The position numbers were made by a program, and so were the translations under genes. 64,000 bases of DNA from Candidatus Latescibacterota bacterium (GTDB taxonomy: Bacteria; Latescibacterota; UBA2968; GCA-2709665). The notes beneath the pieces are model-generated. The model was given only the letters and a program-made list of their open reading frames with translations, ran no database searches and had not been told where the DNA came from. This document shows positions 1-16,153 of the stretch, piece after piece (the first letter of the stretch is position 1; the number at the start of each line of letters is the position of its first letter). Location: contig OZ250150.1 of NCBI GenBank assembly GCA_965237675.1, positions 1,792,001-1,856,000 of the forward strand, given 5' to 3'.

Positions 1-1911
1 ATCCGAACGGAGGCACAAGCCGGACGAATGGGGTCGCGTCTGATGGCGATTGTGGCCAAGGGGGATCGCAGCAGGTTGTATTTTGCACCTGTGGATAGCC
101 ATGAAGCGGTGGCAGCCACGGCCCAACCCCTTTGGAAACCTGACCTGAAAGTACCGACGCCGTGCCATGATGTTGACCGTTTGCCGATGTACGGAATGCC
201 TACATGGGGTGATGCTTTCACCCCCCGACAACTTGTCGCCTTGACTACATTATCCGACCTCGTCAAGGAGGTATTGGAGCGGGTCAAGCGCGATTACAGC
301 AGTGCACGGTCTTCTGGTTCGCCCGAACCCGTAGCGTCCCCATGTACGGATGACGAGACGCCCCTACGCAACGGCGGCGCTGGCGCGTCGGCGTATGCTG
401 AGGCGGTGGGGGTGTATCTGGCGTGTGCGGTTAGCAAAACGTCAAACCGTGCCAGTACCCTATGTACTTTCAAGATTTCAGTGGAATGTCCTGGAGATAC
501 ATTTGGGAGGCAAGCCCTTCCGATGACTTGGGATTACGCTGAAGCGAATACGGTAGCCGGACCTAGCGGCTCCTTTGAAAGCATGCTTACCAACACAGTA
601 GCTGGGTTGCTTTCCAACGGTGCGCTGCCTGGATCCATCGGCCGGGCACACCAGGCAGATGCTGCGTCTCAGTCAATTGCACTCAGAAAAGCTATCTCTA
701 CAGACCCGCCATATTACGACAATATAGGTTACGCCGACCTCTCGGACTTCTTTTACGTCTGGCTACGTCGCTCGATGAGGTCGACGTTTCCGGATCTCTT
801 TGCCACTCTCGCCGTACCAAAGGCCGAAGAACTGGTTGCTACGCCATACCGCCACGGTACAAAGGAAAAGGCGGAGATCTTCTTTCTAGAGGGCATGGTA
901 AGAGTAATGCATTGCATTGCCGACCAAGCGCACCCTGCTTTTCCGATCACCATCTACTACGCCTTTAAGCAGTCTGAGACAAGAGGTGGCTCCAAGCTTG
1001 CCAGCACGGGTTGGGACACATTCTTAAGTGCGGTTATTCGTTCCGGACTCGGAATCACGGGTACCTGGCCTGTACGTACAGAGCGTGAGAACCGAAAGTT
1101 GAATCAGGGCACCAACGCCCTCGCCTCCAGCATCGTCATGGTCTGCCGCAAGCGCGAGGCTGGCGCGCCCTTGGCCACCCGGCGTGAATTCGTAGCCGCG
1201 TTGAGGGAAGAACTTCCCGACGCTCTCGCTCACCTGCAAAGCGGCAATATCGCCCCGGTGGATCTTGCCCAAGCCGCCATCGGTCCCGGCATGGCCGTGT
1301 TCACACGGTACGCTAAGGTGCTCGACGCCCAGGGCAATCCAGTCTCCGTTCGCGATGCCCTCGCGTTAATTAACCAGACACTCGACGAGGTACTGGCGGA
1401 ACAGGAGGGGGAATTCGACCCCGACACCCGCTGGGCCCTGGCGTGGTTCGAGCAGCAGGGTTTTAGCGAGGGCGAGTACGGTGTGGCGGAAACGTTGTCC
1501 AAGGCAAAGAACACCAGCATCGACGGCATCGTCGAGGGCGGGATCCTCGCCTCCCGCGGTGGAAAGGTGCGTCTGTTGCGTCCGAGCGAGTTGGCCGCCG
1601 ATTGGGATCCAACGTCAGACGCTCGGCTCACTGTGTGGGAGGCGGTGCACCACCTTGTCCAGGCCCTCGAGTCCGGTGGCGAATCGGCCGCTGCAACGCT
1701 GGTTCATCAACTCGGCGGAATTGCGGAGACTGCCCGCGAACTGGCATACCGCCTGTACACCGTCTGTGACCGCAAGAACCGCAATGAGGAAGCCCGCTCC
1801 TACAACGGCCTCGTGCAAAGCTGGCCGGAAATCGTGCGATTGTCAAGGGAACTCACGCAAGGTCAACAGTTGAGGATTTTTGGAGATCAAGCATCAAGAA
1901 ATGCTTCTTGA
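1..1911 (+). CDS. DUF1156-domain adenine-specific DNA methyltransferase (5'-truncated by window edge)
   Basis: Frame open from base 1; amino-MTase motif IV TDPPY; family motifs FTPRQL.AL, FGRQALPMTWDYAE, YYAFKQ, IAPVDLAQAAIGPGM; lies upstream of a DUF499 ATPase as usual. Confidence 0.9.
   Translation: MRTEAQAGRMGSRLMAIVAKGDRSRLYFAPVDSHEAVAATAQPLWKPDLKVPTPCHDVDRLPMYGMPTWGDAFTPRQLVALTTLSDLVKEVLERVKRDYSSARSSGSPEPVASPCTDDETPLRNGGAGASAYAEAVGVYLACAVSKTSNRASTLCTFKISVECPGDTFGRQALPMTWDYAEANTVAGPSGSFESMLTNTVAGLLSNGALPGSIGRAHQADAASQSIALRKAISTDPPYYDNIGYADLSDFFYVWLRRSMRSTFPDLFATLAVPKAEELVATPYRHGTKEKAEIFFLEGMVRVMHCIADQAHPAFPITIYYAFKQSETRGGSKLASTGWDTFLSAVIRSGLGITGTWPVRTERENRKLNQGTNALASSIVMVCRKREAGAPLATRREFVAALREELPDALAHLQSGNIAPVDLAQAAIGPGMAVFTRYAKVLDAQGNPVSVRDALALINQTLDEVLAEQEGEFDPDTRWALAWFEQQGFSEGEYGVAETLSKAKNTSIDGIVEGGILASRGGKVRLLRPSELAADWDPTSDARLTVWEAVHHLVQALESGGESAAATLVHQLGGIAETARELAYRLYTVCDRKNRNEEARSYNGLVQSWPEIVRLSRELTQGQQLRIFGDQASRNAS
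1803..1839 (+). repeat. 37-bp direct repeat, copy 1 (methylase 3' end, encodes NGLVQSWPEIVR)
   Basis: caacggcctcgtgcaaagctggccggaaatcgtgcga; 34/37 identical to 7387-7423. Confidence 0.85.
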
Positions 1912-1940
1912 TGTATCAACATGGAGACTGAACTGGCCCA

Positions 1941-3002
1941 TTAAGAGATCACGTGTGCAACTGGTCGATACGGGACCGCGGGCTCCATCAGAAATGACGA
2001 TGCCACTGTCTCCCCAAACTTGCCGAGGGCTGCTCTTGCAGCATCTGGCAGCACGGTCACCGCACCACTCCAATCGTCGAGACGGATTTTCTTGGCAGGC
2101 ATAGGCGTATCAACTCTGATAATCTTATCTCTGCCAATCAGAAGTCCAGCCTGACCAAGAGCGTTGAGAGACTGGAGACGCATGGCGGCATATATGATAT
2201 CATGCCAAGCCCATAGCCCACCTTTAATCTTCGATTTTCCGACCAAATATCGGTCATCCCCGCAGCCCAAGCTCAAGATACTGATTTGCTCACGTCGTAC
2301 AGAAAAGCACGATAATGCATCAACTAACGCTACCATTATGGGGTTGTTTGCCCAGACACCTCCATCAACAAAAGCATAGCCGCGGTCTTCTAGTGGACGA
2401 AAGAATACAGGCGCGGCCGATGTCGCTGCGGCAACTTTCGTCATTAACTCAGCAGAGTCATTTTTAAAATCGGGGTGATGGGGTGTTTTGAATATGTAGA
2501 CTTCACCGTATCGGCCGTCGAAGGATGGTATACAAAGGCGTGTTTGCGCCTCACCGAATTTTCGGCTTCCGAAAGTGTCGCACAGAATTCGCATGAGTGC
2601 TTCGCGGTCGTAGCGGTATTTGAAGAGACAGCCCACGTATCTAAAGGCGCGTTCTAACCAGCCAGCCGGGTTGTTTGGAATTGGAGGGAATATTTCACAT
2701 CCGCGTTCAACATACAGGTCTCGAAGGTCGGCCGCTGTAAGTCCAGCAGCGAGCCCGAGGGCAATAATACCACCAGTCGAGGTTCCTGCGACCAGGTCGA
2801 AATATCCGGCGATTGAGTCCCCGCCGAGATAGCGTTCCTCAAGTCCTGCCAGGAATGTAGCGGGGAAGATTCCACGTATACCACCCCCGTCAATGGCAAG
2901 AATGCGAAACTCCCTGTCTTTCGGCCATGAAAGTCGGGGTCGACGGTGCTCAAGCGTGCCAGATGATCTTTTTTCGGGTGATTCCGCGTTGATATTTGAC
3001 AT
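1941..3002 (-). CDS. CBASS patatin-like phospholipase effector (CapV-like)
   Basis: DGGGIRG oxyanion loop, GTSTG nucleophile and DGG motifs; last gene of the CD-NTase operon. Confidence 0.9.
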   Translation of the reverse strand: MSNINAESPEKRSSGTLEHRRPRLSWPKDREFRILAIDGGGIRGIFPATFLAGLEERYLGGDSIAGYFDLVAGTSTGGIIALGLAAGLTAADLRDLYVERGCEIFPPIPNNPAGWLERAFRYVGCLFKYRYDREALMRILCDTFGSRKFGEAQTRLCIPSFDGRYGEVYIFKTPHHPDFKNDSAELMTKVAAATSAAPVFFRPLEDRGYAFVDGGVWANNPIMVALVDALSCFSVRREQISILSLGCGDDRYLVGKSKIKGGLWAWHDIIYAAMRLQSLNALGQAGLLIGRDKIIRVDTPMPAKKIRLDDWSGAVTVLPDAARAALGKFGETVASSFLMEPAVPYRPVAHVIS

Positions 3003-3010
3003 TTTTGGAT

Positions 3011-3463
3011 CTAACTACCTTCGGGATGGCGACCACCACCCATCCATTTGCCGGTTGCAAGCCAGCCCTCGTAGCAGGCCAGCCAATCTATCGTCCAGGG
3101 AACGATTGTATGGGCGACTGATTGTCGAGGGGTCCATTCACGACCATCTGGATAATAAAGGCAGAGAAAGGGCATCTCAGGGCATTCTTGGTTTTGATAT
3201 TTGTGCGGGATGGGTTCGCAGGGATTTTCTTTACGTCGGCGCAATAGCGGCTCAACTACGGTCACGCACGGAATCCCCGGCGTTTTGAGAGGTCCATTCT
3301 TACTTTTTCGTTGACGACGGAGGCAGACCTGAACAACATATGCTTGTTCGAATGGTGTGAGGCGTCCTTCCCAGCATATTTTCCAATGGCCTCGTTTAAG
3401 TACCCGAAAATCCGGCCATGAACGCCGCATGTCTTGGGCCTGTTGCCAAATCGACAGTGCCAT
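3011..3463 (-). CDS. Stand-alone prokaryotic E2 (ubiquitin-conjugating-like) protein of type II-short CBASS
   Basis: 150 aa with WEG.L.P, PH.Y, LCLY (putative catalytic Cys), EW and W.GG motifs; ATG directly abuts the CD-NTase stop (TAAATG). Confidence 0.8.
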   Translation of the reverse strand: MALSIWQQAQDMRRSWPDFRVLKRGHWKICWEGRLTPFEQAYVVQVCLRRQRKSKNGPLKTPGIPCVTVVEPLLRRRKENPCEPIPHKYQNQECPEMPFLCLYYPDGREWTPRQSVAHTIVPWTIDWLACYEGWLATGKWMGGGRHPEGS

Positions 3464-4711
3464 TTAAATGGGCTCCTCTTCGCCATAAAAGGTATGCTTT
3501 CGGGTTTTTCGGGAGTATCGGGGTGTGGCATCCGAAAGGCTTACTGGAACGACTAACCGGCCGGTCCCAGTAAGGTGTCGGCTCTCACCCGTTCGAATTC
3601 GATCACCCGCCCGCTCACTGAATGCCCGGAATGCATCCATCGCTGGCGTTTCGCCGAACAGTCCCGCCATAACCTCCCTCATTTTGCCAAGGTCAACTCC
3701 CTCCACCAATACCTCAACCTGTTTAACCAGATGTTCGAGATCGCGAATGAAGACGTTTTGGTCTTTCCAAGTTTCCGGCCATCGATCAGTCAAGACATCC
3801 TTATCGCACTCGGGGTTTACGACGCAAATGCGTTGCCCACCGTCTTGCCAACGTTGGAACTCATAAAGTATGTGCTTCGCCTGAAAGAGCAGCTCCTCCG
3901 ACAGGCTTTTGGTATGATTAGCCGCATCGGCTACCAACTTCGCAATCAGTATCGAAGGCGGTCGTCGCCCCGGGCGCGCATCGTATTGTACGTTGCGCCA
4001 ACGTTTTAAGAGCTGAAGCACGATGACGGACTTCGACTTTCGGAATGGGGGTTCTTGTGGCTGGACAGGTTCGCTATCTGCCCTTTCCGCCAGTATCGAC
4101 TGCTCAAAATCGGCCGCACGTCTTTCGAAGACATCGGCGAAATCCTGGTCTGGGGGTGTATTGGCCTTAAACCACTCTGCGAAACCATACGGATTGGCAA
4201 TAATCTTCCTGCTCGGCTCTGCGGGTTCCTCCGGCCGGTCGTGGAAGAGCCAGCTCTCGCGCTCATGAGTTCCCGGTCTGCGAATTAATGGTGTAACATC
4301 GATGTGCATGTCGTCGCTGTAATCAACGGTAACGCATCGAGTTCTTCTCTTTGTCATCCTGTAGTAACGGGAGCCCGGTTTTCCCTTTATCGCTTCGAAC
4401 AGGAGATCTAACGGGATATTGGGCGATATTTGCGATGGCAAATCGAGTTGTGCCACAATGTCAATGTCGAATTCATCGGTCTGGAGTTTCGATGCGATTG
4501 TTGCGCCGACGGCCATTGATCCTTGCGGATAGAACAAATGAACTTTATCCTTGAGCGCACTGTCCTCGCGCTCAATCCATTCGTTTATGGTATTGTATCT
4601 GCCAACGGCCCTATCGTAGTCGGACCGGCTGAGTTGGACGCGAATTGCCACATCGGCCAATAGGATATCCAATGGCTCGGTGAGATGGATTGAATTTGCC
4701 TTGGGGTTCAT
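3464..4711 (-). CDS. CD-NTase (cGAS/DncV-like, SMODS nucleotidyltransferase)
   Basis: YPQGS...DEFDIDIV and HIDVTP catalytic acidic motifs, ANPYGF, LLKRWRN, NP...E/D.LTDRW; C-terminal HTFYG tail. Confidence 0.92.
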   Translation of the reverse strand: MNPKANSIHLTEPLDILLADVAIRVQLSRSDYDRAVGRYNTINEWIEREDSALKDKVHLFYPQGSMAVGATIASKLQTDEFDIDIVAQLDLPSQISPNIPLDLLFEAIKGKPGSRYYRMTKRRTRCVTVDYSDDMHIDVTPLIRRPGTHERESWLFHDRPEEPAEPSRKIIANPYGFAEWFKANTPPDQDFADVFERRAADFEQSILAERADSEPVQPQEPPFRKSKSVIVLQLLKRWRNVQYDARPGRRPPSILIAKLVADAANHTKSLSEELLFQAKHILYEFQRWQDGGQRICVVNPECDKDVLTDRWPETWKDQNVFIRDLEHLVKQVEVLVEGVDLGKMREVMAGLFGETPAMDAFRAFSERAGDRIRTGESRHLTGTGRLVVPVSLSDATPRYSRKTRKHTFYGEEEPI

Positions 4712-4992
4712 TGTAAAATCCTTTCATTTATGTGGTCAGTTTCCAAGACAGTGGACTTTCTGGTCATTTGATTTATATATTGTGGAAAAATCAATCAAAT
4801 TGTAAATTTCAGAAACGGCAGTCGCCGAGAGCACCGGAAGCCAATATTTCGTTACTCAGTTTCAGTCCTACCTAATATATTGTGGATCGTGCCGCTACGA
4901 TTCTCAAAACCGACTGCTGCATGAGGAGTTCGAATAGTGGTTTACAAAATTCCAATATATATGAAAGATTGTAAACCGTCAAGGGGGAAATT
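4711..4992. promoter_or_regulatory. AT-rich divergent promoter region with candidate operators
   Basis: Perfect 9-bp inverted repeat ggtttacaa(4939-4947)/ttgtaaacc(4969-4977); further TTGTAAA at 4711 and 4800; direct repeat atatattgtgga at 4775 and 4875. Confidence 0.6.
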
Positions 4993-6078
4993 ATGGTAGG
5001 GCGAAAACTGAAGATTGCACGGACCGCTGCAGGCCTCTCTCTCCGTGGTCTTGAGGCACGCATTGTAAGTCGGGTGACGGCACAGGCGATCGGCAAGTAC
5101 GAGCGTGGCGCCTCGACGCCAAGCCCAGACGTCCTCACAGCGCTGGCCAACGCCCTATCGGTGCCCGTGGACTACTTGAACGGAGACCAGGAAATCGCAT
5201 TAGAGTCCGTCGAATTTCGGAAGAAGAAGATTACGGGTCGACGCGAGGAGGCGCAGGTCGAAGCGAAAGTAATTCACTTGCTGGAACGCTACCTTGAAGT
5301 AGAGGAGTTTCTCCATCTGACGAGCGTAAACTGGGACAAACCCCGCGCCGCGCCGTATCCTGTCGTCAGCGATCCCTCTGAAGCGGAACGTGCCGCAAAC
5401 AATCTTAGGTTGTATTGGGGCTTGGGGTTTGACCCGATCCCTGATCTTGTAGAGTTGGTCGAAGAACATGGAATTAAGGTCCTTGCAATTGATCTTGGAA
5501 ATATCGACGGCCTTATGGCGCGGGTTCGTCGCCCCGGAAAGCGTCAGGTTCCCGTCCTTGTCGTAAACGACAAGGACGGGGGAGAGCGGCAACGCTTGAC
5601 GATGGCGCATGAACTCGGCCATCTTGTCCTTGACGTCGCAGCAAATATTGACGATGAGAAAGCCGCCTACCGTTTTGGCGGGGCGTTCCTGATGCCCGCC
5701 GAAGCGCTGTGGGGCGCCGTAGGGAAACGACGGACGTCCATCGGATGGAGTGAACTATTTGCTCTAAAGCAGCTATTCGGGGTAAGTGTTCAAGCTCTAA
5801 CCTATCGATGTAAGGATCTCGGCATTATCAGTCTGTCTCTTTTCCGGGTGTTGTTCGGCGAGTTCTCTCGTCAGGGCTGGCGGCGGCCTCCGTATGAAGA
5901 GCCTTATGCGATGCCCGCAGAGGTACCGCAGCGTTTCGAGCGGCTGTGTTACCGCGCCATGGCTGAGGGAGCTATCCCCGTGGCTAGGGCCGCTGAACTG
6001 CTGCAGGTCTCGGTCGCCGAATTGAATCGGTCCATGCTCGAGCCGCCAAGCAAGGAATCTGTCGAAAATCACCATTAA
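4993..6078 (+). CDS. Xre HTH - ImmA/IrrE (DUF955) metallopeptidase fusion regulator
   Basis: N-terminal HTH_3 (LKIARTAAGLSLR...IGKYERG), R.R.T.AHELGH zinc motif, E..A..FGGAFLMP. Confidence 0.9.
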   Translation: MVGRKLKIARTAAGLSLRGLEARIVSRVTAQAIGKYERGASTPSPDVLTALANALSVPVDYLNGDQEIALESVEFRKKKITGRREEAQVEAKVIHLLERYLEVEEFLHLTSVNWDKPRAAPYPVVSDPSEAERAANNLRLYWGLGFDPIPDLVELVEEHGIKVLAIDLGNIDGLMARVRRPGKRQVPVLVVNDKDGGERQRLTMAHELGHLVLDVAANIDDEKAAYRFGGAFLMPAEALWGAVGKRRTSIGWSELFALKQLFGVSVQALTYRCKDLGIISLSLFRVLFGEFSRQGWRRPPYEEPYAMPAEVPQRFERLCYRAMAEGAIPVARAAELLQVSVAELNRSMLEPPSKESVENHH

Positions 6079-6167
6079 CGATCTCTTTATGGTATTGTCC
6101 AGTGGTTGCGCATTTTCGTACTGGAAAATCCCGACTGGATGATCTGCCAACTGCCGCGCGCGGAGAC

Positions 6168-6600
6168 ATGTAAATATCCACCATCGGCTTCACTCAGAAA
6201 CCCGCCCGCCGGTTTTTCGACCTTCTTCGACAGTCCGGCGCGAGGCGTGTCGTCGACGTGCGGCTCAACAACGAGTCACAATTGGCCGGTTTTGCGAAGA
6301 AAGGCGACCTGGAGTTTTTTCTGCGCGAACTTTGTGGTATGGAGTACGTTCACGTGCCCGAACTGGCGCCGACGAAGGAGTTGCTGGGCGACTACAGGAA
6401 GCGGCGTTGCAATTGGGCAGCCTACGAGGACCGATTCATCGCGTTGATACGTGAGCTGCGGATCGAGAAGACCGTTTCGAAACAGCTCGTCGCCGACGGA
6501 TGCTTGCTGTACAGCGAAGACAGGCCGCACCGCTGCCATCGACGGCTCGTAGCCGAGTACTTTAAACAGCATTGTGGCAATTTGGAGATCGGCCATCTCC
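6168..6600 (+). pseudogene. DUF488 family, degenerate copy
   Basis: Colinear with 11577-12014 but begins ATG TAA (codon 2 AAA->TAA); CLLCSE changed to CLLYSE; normal stop after EIxHL lost. Confidence 0.8.
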
Positions 6601-6615
6601 GACAGGAAGCATCGC

Positions 6616-6942
6616 ATGAATATACCTGCCTCCGAATCGTTCATACCGATGATGGTGGATCGCATTGTACAAGGCTTCCAGCCTTCTCGGCTCGTTCTCT
6701 TCGGCTCCCATGCACGGGGCACGGCCACCGAATCAAGCGACGTGGACTTGCTCGTAATTCTGTCCAATGTGTCCGACAAGCGGGATACGGCTATCGAGAT
6801 CCGACGGGCCCTGGGAGATCTCCCGGTTTGCAAGGACATAGTGATAGCGACTCCCGAGGAAGTCACTCGTTGCGGTCATCTTGTTGGGACCGTGTTGCGT
6901 TCAGCACTCCGCGAGGGGCGGGTCATTTATGAACGACCGTGA
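6616..6942 (+). CDS. MNT (minimal nucleotidyltransferase) antitoxin
   Basis: LFGSHARG...SDVDLLV motif, ~108 aa, overlaps a HEPN gene. Confidence 0.85.
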   Translation: MNIPASESFIPMMVDRIVQGFQPSRLVLFGSHARGTATESSDVDLLVILSNVSDKRDTAIEIRRALGDLPVCKDIVIATPEEVTRCGHLVGTVLRSALREGRVIYERP

Positions 6943-7322
6943 CATCGTCGATCAAGTTCGCCGATGGCTTCGTTTCGCCCTGGAGGATCTCGACGTCGCG
7001 CAATGCTTGCTGGCGGCGGATGGCTCACAACCTCGCCCAGCAGGCAGCCGAAAAGGCTTTAAAGGCAGCACTGGTACCCGAAGAAACAGACTTTCCGTTA
7101 CGTCACGACCTGGATGCATTGCGTAACCTCCTGCCGGACACTTGGTCGGTCCGGCGCACACACACGGATCTTGCCCAATTGACCCAATGGGCTCTTGAGG
7201 CACGGTATCCAGGCGATTGGCAAGAGGCCACGGAGGCGGATGCTGATCGGGCGGTGTCCCAGGCACGAGGCGTTTGCAACTCGATAGCGGTCGAGTTTAA
7301 GCGGCGCATAAACGCTGCATAG
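6929..7322 (+). pseudogene. HEPN toxin, frameshifted
   Basis: N-terminus (WLRFALEDLDVA) and C-terminus (AQQAAEKALKA, RHDL, ARYPG) lie in different frames, switching near 7030-7040. Confidence 0.8.
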
Positions 7323-7386
7323 GTTTGTCGAAGATGAGCTATACAAGAAAACGAAGTAGGTGCCTCTCTCCCTGATTTCTCTCCAT

Positions 7387-7423
7387 CAACGGCCTCGTCC
7401 AAAGCTGGCCTAAAATCGTGCGA
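7387..7423 (+). repeat. 37-bp direct repeat, copy 2 (orphan methylase 3'-end fragment)
   Basis: caacggcctcgtccaaagctggcctaaaatcgtgcga. Confidence 0.85.
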
Positions 7424-7431
7424 CGTGTTGC

Positions 7432-7476
7432 GTAGAGTATCCTGGGAGCGCGGGCGTCTCGCCCGCATGCCTCTAC
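7432..7476 (+). repeat. REP-like palindrome
   Basis: cctgggagcgcgggcgtctcgcccgcat hairpin inside a gtagag/ctctac inverted pair; relatives at 15529, 16071, 16126, 26601. Confidence 0.7.
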
Positions 7477-7596
7477 ATCGGCGAAATTATGGCACTATTG
7501 CAAACGCATTCTAAAGTTTTGAAAGTCATCACGAAAATTACTGTATATCCATTTCGTTAACTTGATACTCTCGCCATCGACGAAGGGACTGACGCC

Positions 7597-8775
7597 ATGT
7601 CTGAAGAACGCCATGAAAACCGGCTTCATCTTCCGGATCTGTCGATAACCGGATTTCGAGGTATCGCGTCACTTACGATAGGGAAGTTGGGTCGCGTGAC
7701 GCTGCTGGCGGGAAAGAATGGTGTCGGTAAGACGACCGTTCTGGATGCCGTCCGGGTCTACGCAGCCCGCGGGAACTATGGCGTGTTGTCCGGCTTGCTG
7801 GAGAGCCGCCAAGAGCGGGCTCTCGCTATCTGCGATGATCCCAATCGGCAGAGAAGATTTCTACCTGACTTTGCGGCCCTGTTCCATGGACGGAATGTGT
7901 CGAGGAATGCCTGCATCTCGATCGGGCCCAATATCTGCGAGGATCAACTCAGGATTGAGGAGGAGCCTCTGGACGACCAACAGGTTTCTCAACTCAAGCA
8001 ATCACTCTCTGGCCATTTTGCACACGGCTATCGTCAGGCATTCAAAGTCGTATTTCAAGGCGCTGGACAATTGCTGCCATGGTTTCTCCCCATCCAGGGA
8101 TCGGCGGCGGCCAGAACCGTAGAACGCCATAGCGCTGGCGCGTTCCTTTTCTCATGGGACCTATTGGGCGGAGCTAAGTGGTCGTCCCCAATAGGATGTC
8201 AACCATTGGGACCGGGTGTGTTGAGCAACGAAGAAATGGTACGTTTCTGGAATGCCATTGCGCTGACTGATGATGAGGACCGAGCGATACGGGCCCTGAG
8301 ACTGATTTTCGGGAGCGACCTGGAGCGCGTGGCCGTGATTCGCAACGACGAACCATTTGACAAGGAACATGTTGAGCGAGTGGTCGCAAAGCTCCGGGGC
8401 CAGGCTCGTCCAGTCCCCTTGCAAAGTCTGGGCGATGGGGCACTGCACCTGGCCGCCACTGCCGCGGCGCTGGCCAACAGCCGCGACGGTTTTCTGCTCA
8501 TCGATGAAGCCGAAAACGGTATTCATCATTCCGTTCAAAGGGAGTTCTGGCGGATGGTTCTTATGACGGCACACGAGAATAACGTGCAGGTATTGGCCAC
8601 GACGCACAGCTACGATTGCGTTCGTGGCTTTGCGCAAGCCGTTGATGACTGTGACGGTATCGAAGGGGCGCTTGTGCGTCTTGAACGCGAAGATGGAGGT
8701 CTCCGAGCCGTCGAATATTCGGAGCGTAATATCAGGGAACTAGCTAAGCAACCTGTTGGTGTAGAGGTGAGGTAG
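7597..8775 (+). CDS. AAA_15/AAA_21 ABC-type ATPase
   Basis: Walker A GKNGVGKT, signature SLGDG, Walker B LLIDEAENGIH, H-loop TTHS. Confidence 0.9.
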   Translation: MSEERHENRLHLPDLSITGFRGIASLTIGKLGRVTLLAGKNGVGKTTVLDAVRVYAARGNYGVLSGLLESRQERALAICDDPNRQRRFLPDFAALFHGRNVSRNACISIGPNICEDQLRIEEEPLDDQQVSQLKQSLSGHFAHGYRQAFKVVFQGAGQLLPWFLPIQGSAAARTVERHSAGAFLFSWDLLGGAKWSSPIGCQPLGPGVLSNEEMVRFWNAIALTDDEDRAIRALRLIFGSDLERVAVIRNDEPFDKEHVERVVAKLRGQARPVPLQSLGDGALHLAATAAALANSRDGFLLIDEAENGIHHSVQREFWRMVLMTAHENNVQVLATTHSYDCVRGFAQAVDDCDGIEGALVRLEREDGGLRAVEYSERNIRELAKQPVGVEVR

Positions 8776-8779
8776 CTAA

Positions 8780-9382
8780 ATGTCGGGTGATGATCGTGTT
8801 CTACTCGTGGAAGGGCTGGATGACAAGCGTGTCGTCCGGCATCTGGCTGACCGCTTAGAAAAGATGCCGAAGTTCTACATTTCCGATAAGGAAGGAATTG
8901 ATGTCCTTCTCGGGGAAATCGGCCTGGAATTGCGGGTTCCCGGTCGCAGGGCTCTCGGCATTGTCGCAGACGCGAACGAAGACGTAAATGCTCGCTGGAG
9001 CTCTGTGGCCAACCGGCTTCGAGAGGAAGACATCGAGGTGCCTGACTACCCCGGCGCAGAAGGTACCATCATTAATGGATCCCCTCGAGTTGGCATCTGG
9101 TTGATGCCCGACAATTCATCATCAGGCGAACTTGAAGACTTCGTTGCGGAAATGGTTCCAGACGATGATCCAATTTGGCCACGAGCCCGGCGTTACATTG
9201 ACTGCATTCCAGAGGCGGATCGTAAGTTTACTGAGAAAAAGATACAGCGAGCCAGGATCCACGCTTGGCTGGCAGCAAGGGAGGACCCCAGGCTGATGGG
9301 CGCCGCTATCGGCGCACGTGACTTGCACGTGGATGGAGCACTCAGCACAAAATTCATCAAATGGCTGCGGCGGCTGTTTTAA
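8780..9382 (+). CDS. DUF3226-like TOPRIM-fold protein
   Basis: LLVEG..D, GIVADA, GIWLMPDN..G.LEDF motifs; typical partner of AAA_21 ATPases. Confidence 0.8.
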   Translation: MSGDDRVLLVEGLDDKRVVRHLADRLEKMPKFYISDKEGIDVLLGEIGLELRVPGRRALGIVADANEDVNARWSSVANRLREEDIEVPDYPGAEGTIINGSPRVGIWLMPDNSSSGELEDFVAEMVPDDDPIWPRARRYIDCIPEADRKFTEKKIQRARIHAWLAAREDPRLMGAAIGARDLHVDGALSTKFIKWLRRLF

Positions 9383-9401
9383 TAATCGGACGGACTACGT
9401 A

Positions 9402-10310
9402 ATGACTCCTTCTGAAAAAATCGCCGCCGACACTTGGGAAAGGCTAAAACTGTCACGTGACCTGAAAGTCCGGCTTGGCGAGGAGACGCTGACCGATCTA
9501 TTCGCTCTGGATTTCGTGCGCTTCATGCCGAATCATATTAAGCTATTTCAATTCAATAAATGTGAGGAGTCGGAGCGAGGTGCCGACTTGGAGGTAAGGA
9601 TTCACGACGTAGACACCCAAGCCGCCATATTGGCAGTACAAGCCAAGAAGCTGTATAAACCCGTGAGGCCACATCAAATCGGGGGGTATTATCGGCTCGA
9701 CGCCAGAGCGAAATCTCAGATGGAAATACTTGAGAAGTACTCTCAAGACGTAGGCGCGATCCCAATTTATATTCTTTACAACTATGTGGAGAGTTGCGAT
9801 GTAAATCGGTATTGGCATTGCTGTGAGAATCTCAATAACAACAAAGGGCAACTGGGTTGTACTATAGTTCCAAGCTGGAATTTTCGTCAAGCGTTCGACG
9901 ATTACAGACGCAAGAACTTCGACTGGATTCATAAATCACCTTGTGCACTTCCGTGGCGTTGCCTTTTTGACTGTACTCAGAGACAAAGCAACCAAGGGGA
10001 GACCGCCGCACGCCGTAGCCTGTCGCTGCTTCAAGCGTCATTCCCATTATCGGATCATCAGACCATGATATCGGCACGCCGACATTCGGACGATAACCGA
10101 AATTACAAATGGATACGCTTTGAACCAGTGGAAGATGCTTGGCCTGAATGGCTTTGGGACCGGCGTCGTACGACGTTGACGGCTGAAGATCGTAGGGAGT
10201 TGTGGGGCGACTTCGGCAAAACCGACATAGAAAGTAAGGTGAAGTTGGATAGACCAACCAGAGGATTGATACCCCGTCGGCTCCTTTTGGTCAAGGAGAA
10301 GACTCGATGA
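9402..10310 (+). CDS. DUF6615-like putative PD-(D/E)xK nuclease
   Basis: GEETLTD, E...GADLE, QAKKL, P.Y..YN motifs; lower GC; start chosen at ATG 9402. Confidence 0.6.
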   Translation: MTPSEKIAADTWERLKLSRDLKVRLGEETLTDLFALDFVRFMPNHIKLFQFNKCEESERGADLEVRIHDVDTQAAILAVQAKKLYKPVRPHQIGGYYRLDARAKSQMEILEKYSQDVGAIPIYILYNYVESCDVNRYWHCCENLNNNKGQLGCTIVPSWNFRQAFDDYRRKNFDWIHKSPCALPWRCLFDCTQRQSNQGETAARRSLSLLQASFPLSDHQTMISARRHSDDNRNYKWIRFEPVEDAWPEWLWDRRRTTLTAEDRRELWGDFGKTDIESKVKLDRPTRGLIPRRLLLVKEKTR

Positions 10311-11536
10311 CGGACACGAACCTGGCACGCCGTATCAGGCTCGCAGAGGACTCGAATCTGGAATTCAAGTGTATCGTGTTGTCCGGCGATCGGGTCTCCA
10401 ACCCGCTTCGGAAGGAACTCTCCGATGAGCTTGCCGCCTTCGCTAACAGCCGTGGCGGGACGCTCGTCCTTGGGGTTGACGATGTGACACGTGAGGTCGT
10501 GGGTATCCCCATGGAACACCTTGATGCGGTGGAGCGCTGGGTATGCGAGATCTGCAACGACACGGTGACTCCCCCGCTCGACATGGCGACCCGAAAAATC
10601 GAGTTACCAAATGCCAGTGGCACGCTTGTTCCGGTGGTCCGAATCGATGTTGGCCGCAGCCTGTTTGTCCACAGGAGTGCAGGCGGTTATTTCCGCAGAA
10701 TCGGCAGTTCAAAGCGCGAAATGACGCCGGAAGCACTTGCCCGGCTATTCCAGGACCGGAGCCAGACCCGCGTGATCCGCTTTGACGAATCGCTTGTACC
10801 GCGGACGGAACCCGGCCATTTGGATTATTCATTGACGCGCCGCTTTCTGCGAGACGATTCAGCCGCGGAAGGCGTCAATGAAACCCTCGCACGCAAGCTT
10901 CGCCTCGTCGCCGACGACGATGAGGAAGTTCCACGTCTAACGCTCGCCGCCTTGCTGCTATGTACGCGCAAACCGCAGCAATGGCTTCCCTACGCGCACA
11001 TACAAGCCGTCAGTTATGCGGGTGAGCGTGCCGATGTCAACTATCAGACTGACGCCCGCGCCATCGGAGGTCCACTCGACGCGCAGGTTGAGGATGCGCT
11101 GAATTTCGTAGGTCGAAATATGGTGACACGTGCAGCCAGGACAACGGCCCGGGTCGACCGCCAACGGTTCGGTCAGCGTGCCATGTTCCAGGCGCTGGTC
11201 AATGCGGTAGCACACCGAGATTACTCGATGTACGGTTCGCCGACTCGTCTTCACATTTTCCGCGATCGAATTGAGCTGTATGTCCCCGGCGGACTGGTAA
11301 ATACGCTCTCTCCGGAAAGCCTGCACCTTAGGCAAGCTACCCGGAACGAACTCATCCTGTACCTGTTGACCCGTTGCCGGGCGCCCGCATATGTCGGAAC
11401 GACGCATTTTATACAACGGAGAGGCGATGGCGTGCCCATCATTTTCAACGAGAGCCGGGAGTTATCGGGTCGTCGCCCAGAGTACACCGTGATCGACGAC
11501 AGCGAGTTGCAGCTAACAATATGGGCCGCAGCATAG
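10307..11536 (+). CDS. AlbA_2 (Schlafen-like) + HATPase_c_4 protein
   Basis: EDSNLEFK, AAFANSRGGTLVLGVDD, ALVNAVAHRDY. Confidence 0.88.
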   Translation: MTDTNLARRIRLAEDSNLEFKCIVLSGDRVSNPLRKELSDELAAFANSRGGTLVLGVDDVTREVVGIPMEHLDAVERWVCEICNDTVTPPLDMATRKIELPNASGTLVPVVRIDVGRSLFVHRSAGGYFRRIGSSKREMTPEALARLFQDRSQTRVIRFDESLVPRTEPGHLDYSLTRRFLRDDSAAEGVNETLARKLRLVADDDEEVPRLTLAALLLCTRKPQQWLPYAHIQAVSYAGERADVNYQTDARAIGGPLDAQVEDALNFVGRNMVTRAARTTARVDRQRFGQRAMFQALVNAVAHRDYSMYGSPTRLHIFRDRIELYVPGGLVNTLSPESLHLRQATRNELILYLLTRCRAPAYVGTTHFIQRRGDGVPIIFNESRELSGRRPEYTVIDDSELQLTIWAAA

Positions 11537-11576
11537 TTGGTGGGTTACCGACCAGGAATACTGAAGATAAACCCAC

Positions 11577-12014
11577 ATGAAAATCTCCACCATCGGCTTT
11601 ACGAAAAAGCCCGCGCGCCGTTTCTTTGACTTGCTGATGCAGTCAGACGCCAGACGTGTCGTTGATGTGAGGCTCAACAATGGGTCGCAACTGGCCGGTT
11701 TTGCGAAGAAGGAAGACCTCGCGTTTTTCTTGGGCGAGCTCTGCGGGATGGAGTACATTCACCTGCCCGCGCTGGCCCCGACGAAGGAGTTGCTGGACGA
11801 CTACAGGAAACGGCGTTGTAAATGGGCAGCCTACGAGGATCGCTTCATTGCGCTTATGCGCGAGCGGCGAATTGAGGCGACGGTTCCGAAAGAGATTGTC
11901 GCCGACGGATGCCTGCTGTGCAGCGAGGACAAGCCGCACCGATGCCATCGGCGGCTCGTAGCCGAGTATCTGAAACAGCATTGGGACAACGTGGAAATCG
12001 AACATCTTGGATGA
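11577..12014 (+). CDS. DUF488 family protein
   Basis: TIGFT, DVRL, LAPT, CLLCSE....CHRRLVAEYL. Confidence 0.9.
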   Translation: MKISTIGFTKKPARRFFDLLMQSDARRVVDVRLNNGSQLAGFAKKEDLAFFLGELCGMEYIHLPALAPTKELLDDYRKRRCKWAAYEDRFIALMRERRIEATVPKEIVADGCLLCSEDKPHRCHRRLVAEYLKQHWDNVEIEHLG

Positions 12015-12026
12015 GGGAAAACGATA

Positions 12027-15000
12027 ATGGCCGTAACCAACCGTGAACGCGTCGAAAAGGCGCTTGATCTACTCAAGGCGGGATTGGGTCCATTCGTCGA
12101 TCGCGAAGTCAAGAATGCAATTAAAGCAAAGCGATTGGATGAATACGGCTTCTACAATTTTCCCGAGGACCCGACGCTCAAGGGCAAACCTGTCGACGGG
12201 TGGGACGCTGCCGCGCTGCTGAAGTTGATGTGGGCCATTTGGAACGACGTCTTCAAGTACACGCTCGGGCACACCGAGCGTAGCCTTGTCTCTGAACTGC
12301 GCGATTGGCGCAACAAGTGGGCGCACCAACACCACTTTTCCAGCGACGATACGGATAGAGCCCTCGACTCCGCAGAGCGGTTGCTCACGGCAGTCTCGGC
12401 GTCGCAGGCGGACGAGGTCAATCGCATGAAGATGGAGCTTCGCCGCCTGGTGATGGATGAACAGGTGCGGGGAGAAAAACGCAGGGCTGTGGGCGGGCTC
12501 ATTGAATCCGCCAGCGCAGGCGTTCTGAAACCATGGCGAGAGGTGGTTATGCCGCACGCCGACGTGGCCACCGGCGGGTATCAGCAGGCGGAGTTCGCGG
12601 CGGATTTGTGGCAGGTTCATCTCGGAGAGGGTTCGGACGAGTATCGTGATCCGCGGGAGTTTTTCCGTCGGACGTACCTCACCGAAAGTCTGAGACGTCT
12701 GCTGGAGGGCGCGGCGAGGAGGCTGGCCGGCAAGGGAAGTGACCCCGTGGTGCAGTTGCAGACAAATTTCGGCGGTGGGAAGACGCACTCCATGTTGGCG
12801 CTGTACCACCTGTTTTCCGGCATTGCGCCGGGAAAACTCGAGGGAATGGACGAGGTGCTGGCGGGAACGGCAGTCGATACGCTCCCGGCCGTACGGCGCG
12901 TGGTGCTTGTTGGCAACCGCATCTCCCCTGGCAATCCGGTGGAAAAACCGGACGGGACCGTGGTGCGCACTTTATGGGGCGAACTTGCGTACCAACTTGG
13001 CGGGCGGGATGCGTTCGAGCGGGTCCGCGCCGACGACGAACAGGCGACGAATCCCGGTGATGTGTTGCGCGAGCTTTTCAACGAATACGGACCTTGCGTG
13101 GTGCTCATCGATGAGTGGGTGTCGTACGCGCGACAGCTCCACGATGAGGGAGATCTGCCCGGCGGCAGTTTTGAGACGCAGTTCACCTTTGCGCAGGCGC
13201 TAACCGAATCGGCGAAACTTACGGGCAACTGCCTGCTGGTGATTTCGCTTCCGGCTTCGGACACGTCCGATTCGAGTTCGCCGCACACAGAGGCTGACGA
13301 TGCGGAGGTGGGCGGCATACGGGGTCGTAGCGCGCTGGACCGGTTGCGCAATGTACTCGGCCGGGTGGACTCACCCTGGCGGCCGGCGAGCGCAGAGGAG
13401 AGCTTCGAGATCGTGCGGCGGCGGCTGTTCGAACCGCTCGCGGGGACGGACGCCTTCAAACAACGCGATTTAACCGTGCAGGCTTTTGGGGAACTTTACC
13501 GCTCTCAACAGGTGGAGTTTCCCGTCGATTGTCGCACCATGGAATACCAGCGCCGCGTTCAGGCCGCATACCCGATTCATCCGGAGATCTTTGACCGGCT
13601 CTACACGGACTGGTCCTCGCTTGCCAGGTTCCAGCGCACCCGCGGCGTGTTGCGACTGATGGCTTCGGTGATCCACAGCCTGTGGGAGCGTGGAGACCGC
13701 AATCCGATGATTCTCCCGTCCACCATCCCCATTGACGACCAGCGGGTGCAGAACGAGTTGACACGGTATTTGCCGGAAAACTGGACGCCCGTCATTGAAA
13801 AGGACGTTGACGGTCCCGGCGCCTTACCCCTCAGGATCGACGCCGAGGCACCGAACCTCGGCAAACTCTCTGCGGCGCGGCGTGTGGCGCGCACCGTTTA
13901 TCTCGGGTCCGCGCCGACCTCCGCTGCGGCCCACCGGGGTGTCGATGATGCCCGTGTCAAGCTCGGGTGCGTGATGCCGGGTGAGACGCCAGCCATTTTC
14001 GGCGATGCGCTGCGCCGGTTGGCGGCGGCGGCGACCTATCTCTACCAGGACGGTGCCCGGGTGTGGTATGCGACGCAGCCCACCGTCACCAAGCTCGCCG
14101 AAGACCGCGCCGAGCAGTTGAGGGGGCAGCCCGACGAGGTGGCGGCGGAACTGGAAAAGCGACTCAAAACGGACTTGCGCGCGGCGGGAGACTTCGAGCG
14201 AATCCATCCACTGCCCCGTTCAGGGGCGGACGTACCCGACGACCTCGATGCGCGGCTCGTGGTGCTTTCGGCGGAGCAACCCTATTGGAAAGAGCCGGAC
14301 AACGCGGCCCAGGTGGCCGCAAAAGACATCCTCGAAATGCGCGGCAACACGCCCAGGCTCTACCGGAACACGTTGGTATTCCTCGCGGTGGACAGGGTGC
14401 GATGGCAGGACCTGGACGAAGCCCTGCGCAGGTACCTGGCGTGGGAGTCGATCCTCGAGGACAGAGTCGAACTCAATCTGGATCCACACCAAGCCCGCCA
14501 GGCCGAAAACCAGAAGAACGCGGCCAACGACACGGTCACGGCGCGCCTTCCAGAGGCGTATCAGTGGCTGCTGGCGCCGGAGCAGTCTAACCCAAAGTCG
14601 GCGCTGTCATGGAATGCCATCCGACTCACCGCCTCCGGGGGGCTCGCCGAACGGGCTTCCAGGCGACTGCGCAATGATGAGATGCTGATTTCCACGCTCG
14701 GGGCCACGATTCTTCGGAAACACCTCGACGACGTGCCGCTCTGGCGCGGCGACCACGTGGAAGTCCGGCAACTCGTCCAGGACTTCGGGCAGTTCCTGTA
14801 CCTTCCGCGGCTCGCGGGCCCGGACGTGCTTGTACGTGCGATCCAGGATGGTGTGGGATTGATAACCTGGAAACTGGATAGCTTCGCCTTTGCCGAAAGC
14901 TATAACGAAGCCGTTAGTCGTTATCTTGGGCTGCGGGCACCCGGTTCCGTCTCTGTTTCGCCCGAGAGCAGGGCGCTTGTCGTGAAACCGTTGGTTGCCG

Positions 15001-15353
15001 GAAAGCAGTTGGAAGTGGAGCAGGCTCCAAGCCCCGGAGAAGAGGCTCCAGGCGAGCCCGGGGAGGAAGTTCCAGGCGAAGACGCACCCCCGGAACAGCC
15101 GGAGCCACCCGAGGTGAAACCACGCCGGTACCATGGCGCGGTGACGCTGGACGCCCAAAGGGTGGGTCGCGACGCCAGCCAGATCGCCGACGAGGTAATC
15201 GCGCATCTGTCGGGGATCGTAGGCGCGGATGTGACGGTTACGCTGGAGATCCACGCGGAAATACCCGACGGGGCTCCGGAAACTGTGGTGCGGACGGTCA
15301 CGGAGAACAGCCAGACGCTTAAGTTCGAGAGCCACGGGTTCGAGGAATCGTAG
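12027..15353 (+). CDS. Swt1-like HEPN + DUF499 AAA+ ATPase
   Basis: N-terminal RNKWAH (Rx4H HEPN), KPWREV..PH.DV, EFAADL, Walker A FGGGKTH, Walker B LIDE, AYPIHPE, FQRTRGVLR; Pro/Glu linker near C-terminus. Confidence 0.92.
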   Translation: MAVTNRERVEKALDLLKAGLGPFVDREVKNAIKAKRLDEYGFYNFPEDPTLKGKPVDGWDAAALLKLMWAIWNDVFKYTLGHTERSLVSELRDWRNKWAHQHHFSSDDTDRALDSAERLLTAVSASQADEVNRMKMELRRLVMDEQVRGEKRRAVGGLIESASAGVLKPWREVVMPHADVATGGYQQAEFAADLWQVHLGEGSDEYRDPREFFRRTYLTESLRRLLEGAARRLAGKGSDPVVQLQTNFGGGKTHSMLALYHLFSGIAPGKLEGMDEVLAGTAVDTLPAVRRVVLVGNRISPGNPVEKPDGTVVRTLWGELAYQLGGRDAFERVRADDEQATNPGDVLRELFNEYGPCVVLIDEWVSYARQLHDEGDLPGGSFETQFTFAQALTESAKLTGNCLLVISLPASDTSDSSSPHTEADDAEVGGIRGRSALDRLRNVLGRVDSPWRPASAEESFEIVRRRLFEPLAGTDAFKQRDLTVQAFGELYRSQQVEFPVDCRTMEYQRRVQAAYPIHPEIFDRLYTDWSSLARFQRTRGVLRLMASVIHSLWERGDRNPMILPSTIPIDDQRVQNELTRYLPENWTPVIEKDVDGPGALPLRIDAEAPNLGKLSAARRVARTVYLGSAPTSAAAHRGVDDARVKLGCVMPGETPAIFGDALRRLAAAATYLYQDGARVWYATQPTVTKLAEDRAEQLRGQPDEVAAELEKRLKTDLRAAGDFERIHPLPRSGADVPDDLDARLVVLSAEQPYWKEPDNAAQVAAKDILEMRGNTPRLYRNTLVFLAVDRVRWQDLDEALRRYLAWESILEDRVELNLDPHQARQAENQKNAANDTVTARLPEAYQWLLAPEQSNPKSALSWNAIRLTASGGLAERASRRLRNDEMLISTLGATILRKHLDDVPLWRGDHVEVRQLVQDFGQFLYLPRLAGPDVLVRAIQDGVGLITWKLDSFAFAESYNEAVSRYLGLRAPGSVSVSPESRALVVKPLVAGKQLEVEQAPSPGEEAPGEPGEEVPGEDAPPEQPEPPEVKPRRYHGAVTLDAQRVGRDASQIADEVIAHLSGIVGADVTVTLEIHAEIPDGAPETVVRTVTENSQTLKFESHGFEES

Positions 15354-15430
15354 CTAAAGCCCGACAATACTGGCCGATCGTCCGCCCATCCGGGACGATT
15401 GCAGCAGAACCCAGCCAATTCGACCTGATA

Positions 15431-15527
15431 AGGGAACGCACGTGGAGTTCGCACCAGGCCAAATCAGCGCACTCACCTCCTTCTCTGAATTGGTGTTGGA
15501 CGTAATTGAACGCGTCAAGTGCGATTA
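15431..15527 (+). pseudogene. Degenerate internal fragment of a DUF1156 methylase (copy a)
   Basis: Translates FAPGQISALTSFSELVLDVIERVKCD*, matching FTPRQLVALTTLSDLVKEVLERVKRD in gene 1..1911. Confidence 0.6.
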
Positions 15528-15528
15528 A

Positions 15529-15555
15529 CTGGGAGCGAGGGCATCCTGCCCTCGA
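15529..15555 (+). repeat. REP-like palindrome
   Basis: ctgggagcgagggcatcctgccctcga; inverted partner at 16126-16153. Confidence 0.7.
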
Positions 15556-15621
15556 CACATAGGGCGGGGCACCCGTGGCCGCTGGGTATTGCGGCGTTAC
15601 CCCCTTATATTCTTTTTAAAG

Positions 15622-15704
15622 AGAGAACGCACTTGCTGATCGCTTCGTGCCAAATCAGCGCACTCACCTCCTTCTCCGAACTGGTGGCGGATGCAATGGA
15701 ACGC
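15622..15704 (+). repeat. Second copy of the methylase-like fragment (imperfect 83-bp repeat of 15431-15513)
   Basis: Shared core gccaaatcagcgcactcacctccttctc; translates QISALTSFSELVADAMER. Confidence 0.7.
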
Positions 15705-15720
15705 AAAAAGGAGGAAATTC

Positions 15721-15963
15721 ATGACTGGGCAAGGTTCGGGCGGCAATGTCCTTGCAGCTTTGTGTAGTCTTCTTGTACCCGGTTTGGGCCAGTTGCTTCA
15801 ATGACGTTTCCTAATGGCCCCCATCCAATTTTTCCTGGCGGCCGTACTGTGGTTTATCCTGATGGGCTGGGTGATCCACCTCTGGTCGGTTCTGGACGCA
15901 GCCCGGTGGAAGCCAGTAGACAAACCGACTTCTGCGAGCGGCCAGGGCAACGGCGGGGGTTGA
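15721..15963 (+). pseudogene. Small membrane protein with in-frame TGA (not in ORF track)
   Basis: AAGGAGG RBS; MTGQGSGGNVLAALCSLLVPGLGQLLQ*RFLMAPIQFFLAAVLWFILMGWVIHLWSVLDAARWKP; TGA at 15802 where PGLGQxxxG proteins have Gly. Confidence 0.75.
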
Positions 15964-16070
15964 ACGCTCGCCGTTCGGGGAGCGGGCTGGGTTAGAGGCG
16001 CAGGTCAATGTGGTCCCCCTACGCGACTATTCGATGCCGGGTTCGAGGATTCGTAAAAAAGCCAGGGACA

Positions 16071-16153
16071 ATGCGGGCGGGACGCCCGCGCCCCCAGGAA
16101 GTGTTCGGGCGGTACCGAGCGATAGTCGAGGGCAGGATGCCCTCGGTCCCAGG
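16071..16153 (-). repeat. Two tandem REP-like palindromes
   Basis: Reverse complements cctgggggcgcgggcgtcccgcccgcat (16071-16098) and cctgggaccgagggcatcctgccctcga (16126-16153). Confidence 0.7.

Follow-up and report, generated by a model that had tools for sequence, protein, structure and literature searches.

Relics of hmaB and of cargo genes mark a seam between two defence cassettes stacked within an Hma system of a Latescibacterota genome

Background

Hma systems are defence operons in which three core genes, hmaA, hmaB and hmaC, stand in order, often with cargo genes between them. The locus described here lies in a stretch of 64,000 nucleotides (nt) of the 5.6-Mb genome of a Candidatus Latescibacterota bacterium (assembly GCA_965237675.1, contig OZ250150.1; G000:C1:1792001-1856000). 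This whole stretch is referred to as the window and the genome as G000. The interval between hmaB and hmaC was found to hold two cassettes of unrelated defence genes stacked head to tail, with the seam between them marked by relics of hmaB and of a cargo gene.

Embedded defence genes, and the idea of a 'hotspot' for them, are already known for Hma from the available text of two reports. Embedded genes were counted in 931 of 1,485 Hma systems by Payne et al. (2024), with 96.7% in the same orientation, and the text available of this preprint offers the idea of a 'genomic sink' only, with no mechanism and no use of the word 'recombination' (bioRxiv 10.1101/2024.01.29.577857). Liu et al. (2024) reported embedded genes in about 66.5% of systems and described a 'defence gene insertion hotspot', the available text again giving no mechanism, and phage protection was shown for a Halomonas HmaA (PMC11232893). 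Hma has also been renamed as a Type-1 DUF499-centred system related to bacteriophage exclusion (BREX) (PMC12839542). The present locus agrees with these systems in its three ordered core genes with cargo between them. However, it differs in that relics of a core gene and of cargo mark the seam between two stacked cassettes, and in that an embedded operon of the cyclic oligonucleotide-based antiphage signalling system (CBASS) runs on the opposite strand from the Hma genes. What is new is this seam, which is common to a second genome; full-text literature searches, with supplements outside their scope, returned no paper on such scars.

Core defence hotspots of P. aeruginosa (cDHS, PMC10250203) and defence islands of E. 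coli (PMC10121019), as the available portions of those reports describe them, likewise combine variable cargo with conserved flanks and no dedicated integrase. In contrast to them, a defence system itself supplies the flanks here, and relics of these flanking genes occur inside the array.

Integrons are serial arrays of independent cassettes at one site. The array of the window differs in lacking an IntI-type integrase and an attC-like site for each boundary, its seams being relics of neighbouring genes. No Phage_integrase or other recombinase hit was obtained for any ORF (open reading frame) scanned from hmaA to hmaC with Pfam and PADLOC, and a single hairpin was found, at one boundary only. 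In homology-facilitated illegitimate recombination, a process of transformable bacteria, one homologous anchor and one illegitimate join add foreign DNA without loss of resident DNA. The layout that this process predicts is the one observed, and on that likeness it may have acted at this locus.

Relics at the seam between the two cassettes

Genes were called from an ORF listing with Pfam and PADLOC profile scans, and 15 kb upstream of the window was added to the analysis (locus L003, in which position 9385 corresponds to window position -5615). The locus is a complete Hma system (or Type-1 DUF499-centred BREX-related system), as hmaA, hmaB and hmaC are all present, intact, in order and on one strand. 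The DUF1156 N6-adenine methylase gene hmaB has an ORF of 1000 amino acids (aa) starting 1091 nt upstream of the window (PADLOC HmaB E=0; Pfam DUF1156 2e-32), so its last 636 codons occupy positions 1..1911 (+; PADLOC HmaB PDLC00660 1.2e-259). The gene hmaC encodes a DUF499 AAA+ ATPase with an N-terminal Swt1-like HEPN domain at 12027..15353 (+; PADLOC HmaC E=0; Pfam HEPN_Swt1, DUF499). Between them lies an 'embedding slot' in which self-contained defence modules follow one another in series, and each of these modules would defend on its own.

Two direct repeats structure this slot. The first, 1797-1839 / 7381-7423, was identified by repeat search and alignment and consists of 43 nt with 88% identity, including the 37-nt core (92% identical) that the initial annotation of the sequence had reported as a 37-bp match. 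In a BLAST self-comparison of positions 1-16000 it scored 56.3 bits, while the best match in 100 dinucleotide shuffles had a mean of 26.9 bits and a maximum of 33.7, and the match is therefore significant. Its left copy (1797..1839, +) encodes the conserved motif SYNGLVQSWPEIVR within hmaB and lies 72 nt ahead of the stop codon. The right copy belongs to a relic of the hmaB 3' end at 7381..7434 (+), which reads SINGLVQSWPKIVRRVA-stop and corresponds to the HmaB C-terminal motif (A/S)YN(G/A)LVQSWPEI, present in nearly all hmaB tails of 59 related loci. The DNA of the relic was found to match many hmaB alleles at an equal distance from their stop codons (33/36 positions in L004; 23/24 in L061, L032 and L024). 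A search of all 5.6 Mb of the genome placed the hmaB 3' stretch at these two sites of the locus and nowhere else.

The second repeat, 6166-6465 / 11575-11874 (300 nt, 80%, by repeat search), reflects the repetition of a whole DUF488 gene, with 6168-6602 aligning to 11577-12011 at 81% identity over 435 nt without indels. The copy at 11577..12014 is intact. The first copy (6168..6602, +) is a pseudogene, recognised from its alignment to the second, with TAA at codon 2, the stop codon lost and the Cys of CLLCSE changed to Tyr, a residue retained as Cys in 6/6 other copies compared. The repetition of the methylase end and of DUF488 in the same order and orientation, and the death of the first DUF488, had been proposed in the initial annotation and were borne out.

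The seam and the exchange of cargo in related genomes

The nearest loci are from Latescibacterota metagenome-assembled genomes (MAGs), namely L004 (hmaA 90% and hmaC 88% aa identity; genome G002), L027 of genome G001 (hmaC 85%) and L005. Locus L027 was extended into L088 in order to read the whole G001 locus. The order in G001 is hmaB, four unknown ORFs, Ppl, AlbA_2, DUF488, MNT, the first 36 codons of HEPN, a hairpin, M38A, M38B and DUF6615, followed by a DUF488 3' fragment, a second MNT, HEC-01, two ORFs on the minus strand and hmaC. Its hairpin and M38A leader align with those of the window, and approximately 400 nt (roughly window 7040-7440), comprising the 3' part of HEPN and the hmaB relic, are lacking. 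The seam is thus common to G000 and G001, which means that the two loci diverged after the head-to-tail join had formed.

The three genomes share the same flanking genes (heparinase-like and FG-GAP propeller, 84-86% aa identity), and the islands at this common chromosomal site measure 28.8 kb in G000, 54.1 kb in G001 and 23.9 kb in G002, with differing cargo. G000 and G001 are homologous up to 1852, just after the hmaB 3' motif, and again from 6168, the start of DUF488. The cargo of the first cassette has therefore been exchanged, being CBASS with its regulator in G000 and Ppl with AlbA_2 in G001. This boundary is where a swap of alleles at the flanks, as earlier suggested for this locus, would place it.

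Phylogeny of the MNT genes gave two deep clades (support 100/99) with 63-65% nt identity between them. Clade I comprises G000, copy 1 of G001, L006 and L015, and clade II comprises copy 2 of G001, G002 (L004) and L005. As the two MNT copies of G001 fall in different clades, two allele types stand in series in that genome. MNT/HEPN is also a shuffled module, a point on which the initial annotation needs correction.

Small changes within the relic modules were seen in public sequencing runs. In runs X11 and X1 the dead DUF488 has a further 7-nt deletion at 6237, and HEPN has a 17-nt insertion at 7030, near the start of the ~400-nt deletion of G001. These differences indicate that the relic modules are decaying.

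Cargo between hmaB and hmaC among relatives

One genome per species was scanned for relatives; 579 stretches encode methylase relatives, and the best 80 loci were kept. An hmaB end with a downstream hmaC on the same strand was found in 59/80 loci. The remaining 21/80 were cut by contig ends or were without hmaC in the available flank, L027 being among them with its hmaC 13.8 kb downstream. The gap between hmaB and hmaC was at most 150 nt in 34 of the 59 loci, 151-1000 nt in 6, 1-3 kb in 12 and above 3 kb in 7. No cargo was thus present in 34/59 loci, and diverse cargo of 0.15-8.3 kb in 25/59. Scanning of 88 ORFs in the slot identified HEC-01, HEC-03, HEC-04, HEC-06, Ppl, PDC-M19, M38, M45, M56, S01, S54, MNT/HEPN and AlbA_2, and no fixed gene set stood between the methylase stop and hmaC.

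Single-cassette forms were found among these relatives. In L067, from another phylum, the hmaB stop is followed by 51 nt, a hairpin (27/28 to 7441-7468), ~125 nt and M38A-M38B-hmaC, a form collinear with the relic, hairpin and M38A of the window. L005 carries M38A-M38B-AlbA_2-DUF488-MNT-HEPN-hmaC, and L004 carries Ppl-AlbA_2-DUF488-MNT-hmaC.

The suggestion that the interval from methylase to DUF488 is an exchangeable slot was therefore upheld in respect of its varying cargo and the existence of single-cassette forms, but not in respect of its right border. DUF488 is cargo typical of a small lineage and not a core anchor, because it occurs in only 4/80 related loci and because L050 has it in third place, with M45A and M45B, in a PDC-M45 trio. 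The core right anchor is hmaC, which lies within 150 nt of hmaB in 34 of 59 loci.

Proposed origin of the array and alternative explanations

The arrangement is best accounted for by the joining in series of two differently loaded versions of the slot through homologous and illegitimate recombination, followed by a swap of cargo and the decay of relics, to which a probability of about 0.68 is given. The left partner would have been [hmaB - cargo - DUF488 - MNT - HEPN], and the right partner [last part of another hmaB - hairpin - M38A/M38B - DUF6615 - AlbA_2 - DUF488 - hmaC]. One homologous crossover would have taken place in shared sequence on the hmaC/DUF488 side, while the other end would have been joined illegitimately, from the spacer after HEPN to a point ~115 nt before the stop of the incoming hmaB. 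Either homology-facilitated illegitimate recombination or unequal crossing-over of misaligned loci may have been the pathway. Later, homologous exchange would have replaced the cargo that lay between the 3' motif of hmaB and the first DUF488, the redundant first DUF488 would have decayed, and pieces would have been deleted in relatives. The initial annotation had likewise pictured two alleles captured in series without an integrase. The absence of an integrase holds for slot and flanks alike, and the capture in series remains the favoured account, but it is not a fresh one, as G001 and a 97% identical strain have the seam in common with G000.

Several points weigh against this origin. The parental sequences of the join are gone, so that no microhomology or crossover point can be demonstrated. 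The DUF488 tree is a star, with the copies of G000, G001 and G002 being 77-83% identical and neither copy of the window clearly foreign; DUF488 therefore cannot separate two alleles from an old duplication, and the MNT tree is more informative. A protein-motif scan of 82 sequences for further hmaB 3' relics returned that of the window alone, so this type of scar is not shown to recur. The relaxed pattern gave 80 hits, of which 1 was outside a full hmaB, and 1 hit in reversed controls; a stricter pattern missed the relic of the window itself because of the Lys that it contains. In favour of the join, by contrast, isolated core-gene fragments were also found in 6/80 related loci. Five of these have hmaB 5' pieces upstream of an intact hmaB (L009, L025, L033, L046 and L061), some of which could be small DUF1156 genes. 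In the sixth, L070, a 5' piece of hmaC is lodged between two cassettes, with HEC-06 and PDC-M56 on either side, a mirror image of the case in the window. Dropped from this count were L012 (hmaC start 91 nt from a contig end), L066 (a 3' piece of hmaA in a locus that lacks the full gene), a weak minus-strand helicase hit in L070 and all hits touching a locus end. Also against the join, contigs of four public runs were aligned to 1500-12500 and no single-cassette variants of the population were found among them, although contigs cannot reveal rare forms. Joints from 1803 to 7387 or from 6168 to 11577, for which the initial annotation had advised a search, were also absent from these contigs, which says nothing on single-cassette variants. 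The long joints that the contigs did contain, 1834->12456 and 6273->11910, have sides of 22-25 nt, occur in one contig each and are out of register with the repeats.

An alternative is that the array arose in place, by tandem duplication through an illegitimate exchange between sister strands that doubled the stretch running from the 3' end of hmaB as far as the spacer between HEPN and hmaC. The copies would then have diverged, with cargo replaced in copy 1 and MNT/HEPN lost from copy 2, so as to mimic two alleles. The layout is exactly as expected from such an event, with one endpoint ~115 nt ahead of the stop of hmaB and the other past HEPN. Moreover, the DUF488 genes of the three genomes form one clade with no resolved foreign member, within which the two DUF488 pieces of G001 group together (98/98). 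However, the cargo of the two units has nothing in common, and the two DUF488 copies of the window, at 81% identity, are as distant as orthologues between genomes. The two MNT copies of G001 belong to different deep clades, and both parental single-cassette types were found separately in relatives. As more steps are also needed, a duplication in place was considered unlikely.

Hairpin-guided movement was also considered, in which a Y1 (HUH) transposase together with the seam hairpin would have moved cassette 2 as a hairpin-bounded single-strand unit, a form of integron-like capture without an integron integrase. A hairpin resembling repetitive extragenic palindromic (REP) elements, consisting of CTGGGAGCG and a GC-rich stem-loop, lies exactly at the seam (7440..7468, +), and a second one with matching orientation is found immediately 3' of hmaC (15529). 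In L067 and G001 the hairpin of the seam stands ahead of M38A, and in L028 a 0.7-kb insertion that interrupts hmaB has hairpins on its two sides. Furthermore, a Y1_Tnp ORF (IS200-like, or like the REP-associated tyrosine transposases, RAYT) is situated at window -10609..-9848, next to hmaA, and is flanked by inverted hairpins. The family, whose stems show compensatory variants, has 19 copies in G000 (0 for a control pattern), 8 of them around this island, the upstream ones at window -11288 to -9686. Against this, such movement leaves the hmaB relic and the second DUF488 unexplained, and the other cassette boundaries within 1911-15353 are without a hairpin. A motif scan of the relatives gave 14 hits in only 8/81 sequences (80 loci and L088; 0 in reversed controls), and 3 of these 8 (L014, L016 and L068) look unrelated to the family. 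The pattern fits an ordinary REP/RAYT family landing in intergenic spacers, and a role of the hairpin in moving the cassette appears very improbable.

Concatenation of two strain alleles by the assembler can practically be dismissed: the short-read contigs of runs X6 and X7 that are identical to the window do end at the hairpin (7441-7469) and at 11911-11939, but run X11, from another study and ~97% identical, yielded a 5.3-kb contig covering 1500-6778 and one 5.8-kb contig that runs through 6846-7751 and 10496-12230 and so bridges the seam, and the same seam is carried by the separate genome G001.

Gene content of the locus

The gene content proposed in the initial annotation was confirmed with Pfam and PADLOC. 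Upstream of the window, hmaA (L003 5421-8993) encodes an SNF2 helicase-nuclease, whose nuclease-type domain is C-terminal (PADLOC HmaA E=0 over 1-1189; Pfam SNF2-rel_dom, Helicase_C, NOV_C). The first cassette opens with a CBASS operon on the minus strand (1941-4711), in which the cyclase, patatin effector and E2-like accessory of such a system were all identified by PADLOC. These are a patatin phospholipase effector (1941-3002; PADLOC Effector 1.1e-110; Pfam Patatin), an E2-like Cap2 (3011-3463; PADLOC E2 9.1e-46) and a CD-NTase cyclase (3464-4711; PADLOC Cyclase 2.6e-146; Pfam SMODS). Divergent from this operon is a gene for a fused HTH (Xre) and M78 peptidase regulator (4993..6078, +; Pfam HTH_3, Peptidase_M78; PADLOC RmrA 1.7e-51, with capP/capH weaker), and promoter-like sites are clustered at 4690-4982. 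Homologues of this regulator were found directly 5' of hmaB in L005 (7812-8876, 74% aa) and L013 (7391-8446, 62% aa), and queries with the CBASS genes gave no match in either of these loci. The regulator may thus serve the Hma operon or embedded cargo generally, and not CBASS alone. After the dead DUF488 follow an MNT nucleotidyltransferase of clade I (6574..6942, +, likely start ATG 6616; Pfam NTP_transf_2 2.1e-12; PADLOC PDC-S09) and its HEPN partner (6939..7322, +; Pfam HEPN 1.4e-14).

Beyond the seam, the second cassette begins with a PDC-M38/AbiL-like pair, an ABC-type ATPase followed by a DUF3226 protein. These are M38A (7597-8775, +; PADLOC PDC-M38A 3e-68, AbiLi 1e-39; Pfam AAA_21) and M38B (8780-9382, +; PADLOC PDC-M38B 4.4e-38; Pfam DUF3226), and the pair is also present in L005, L025, L067 and G001. 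Next are a DUF6615 protein (9318..10310, +; Pfam DUF6615 7.8e-13), with a homologue at the same position in G001, and a Schlafen AlbA_2 and HATPase_c_4 protein identified by Pfam (10307..11536, +). A gene of the latter kind lies immediately 5' of DUF488 in L004, L005 and G001, and of hmaC in L013 and L038. The intact DUF488 gene (11577..12014, +), 12 nt upstream of hmaC, belongs to the PDC-M45C family (Pfam DUF488 2.9e-24; PADLOC PDC-M45C 1.9e-72). The PDC-M45 trio is not complete in the window, where M45C alone is present; no ORF matches M45A, and the sole M45B match is a weak one by DUF488 itself. A literature search on DUF488 and defence gave nothing useful on DUF488 function.

The slot between hmaA and hmaB is also loaded, with five embedded genes at L003 9385-13960 (window -5615 to -1040). 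These encode a weak HATPase_c-like protein, a DUF4325 (STAS-like) protein, a PIN protein, a PD-T4-4_A-like ABC ATPase (513 aa) and its 161-aa partner. Parts of this set were found again in L004, L025, L027 and L048, in either slot.

Variation within hmaB

The middle of hmaB (window about -58 to 695) has no nucleotide similarity to its closest relatives, with the flanking parts of the gene aligning at 72-86%. Across the C-terminal 636 aa the nearest relative, L004, is 66% identical, which is no closer than loci of other phyla (L028 69%, L011 67%). Set against the 88-90% identity of hmaA and hmaC to those of L004, this pattern suggests that the target-recognition part of the methylase has been swapped.

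A second hmaB, inverted and upstream of the full one, was observed in 10/80 loci (L014, L016, L019, L039, L042, L057, L058, L071, L072 and L083). Most of these copies are without the last ~180-200 codons, and they are 70-88% identical in blocks. The spacer of 2-4 kb encodes one or more tyrosine recombinases in 7/10 of these loci, as a tandem pair in 5 of those 7. Invertible switches of specificity occur in type I hsdS and in BREX pglX, and the inverted hmaB pair looks like a switch of this kind for methylase specificity.

Hairpins and repeats around hmaC and in other loci

Downstream of hmaC, REP-like hairpins are found at 15529-15556, 16071-16099 and 16125-16152, among which a direct repeat of 83 nt (81%; 15431-15513 / 15622-15704) lies just 3' of the gene. 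At the seam hairpin, word depth was several hundred times that of neighbouring sequence in all four runs. The hairpin was rejected as a general cassette boundary or mechanism, as most loaded loci have none.

The insertion that splits hmaB in L028 (~0.7 kb) lies at 10295-11066 and is flanked by hairpins of the same family. A similar split of ~0.8 kb in L027 of G001 (about 8788-9569) has a hairpin at its edge, and L029 has a similar split with no hairpin hit. A small non-autonomous mobile element, for which hmaB is a target or a tolerated site, may account for these splits.

Implications for embedded defence genes

Genes nested in Hma, BREX and restriction operons are used for the discovery of immune systems, and the available text of the Hma papers leaves their route of entry unexplained. 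The present locus and its same-site relatives provide a readable example, with a relic seam between stacked cassettes, one cassette later swapped and no integrase. It is conceivable, at a little under even odds, that Hma-like multi-gene defence operons are in general self-organising cassette arrays without an integrase. Differently loaded alleles would be spliced in series by recombination, with the ends of core genes and small recurrent cargo (DUF488, MNT/HEPN) acting as portable patches of homology. Such an array would grow, swap single cassettes and shrink in place, leaving in its seam relics a record from which the spread of 'embedded' defence systems could be reconstructed. If this is general, scars of this kind would allow cassette boundaries and donors to be called from sequence alone, and the joint travel of embedded systems and their host operon would be accounted for.

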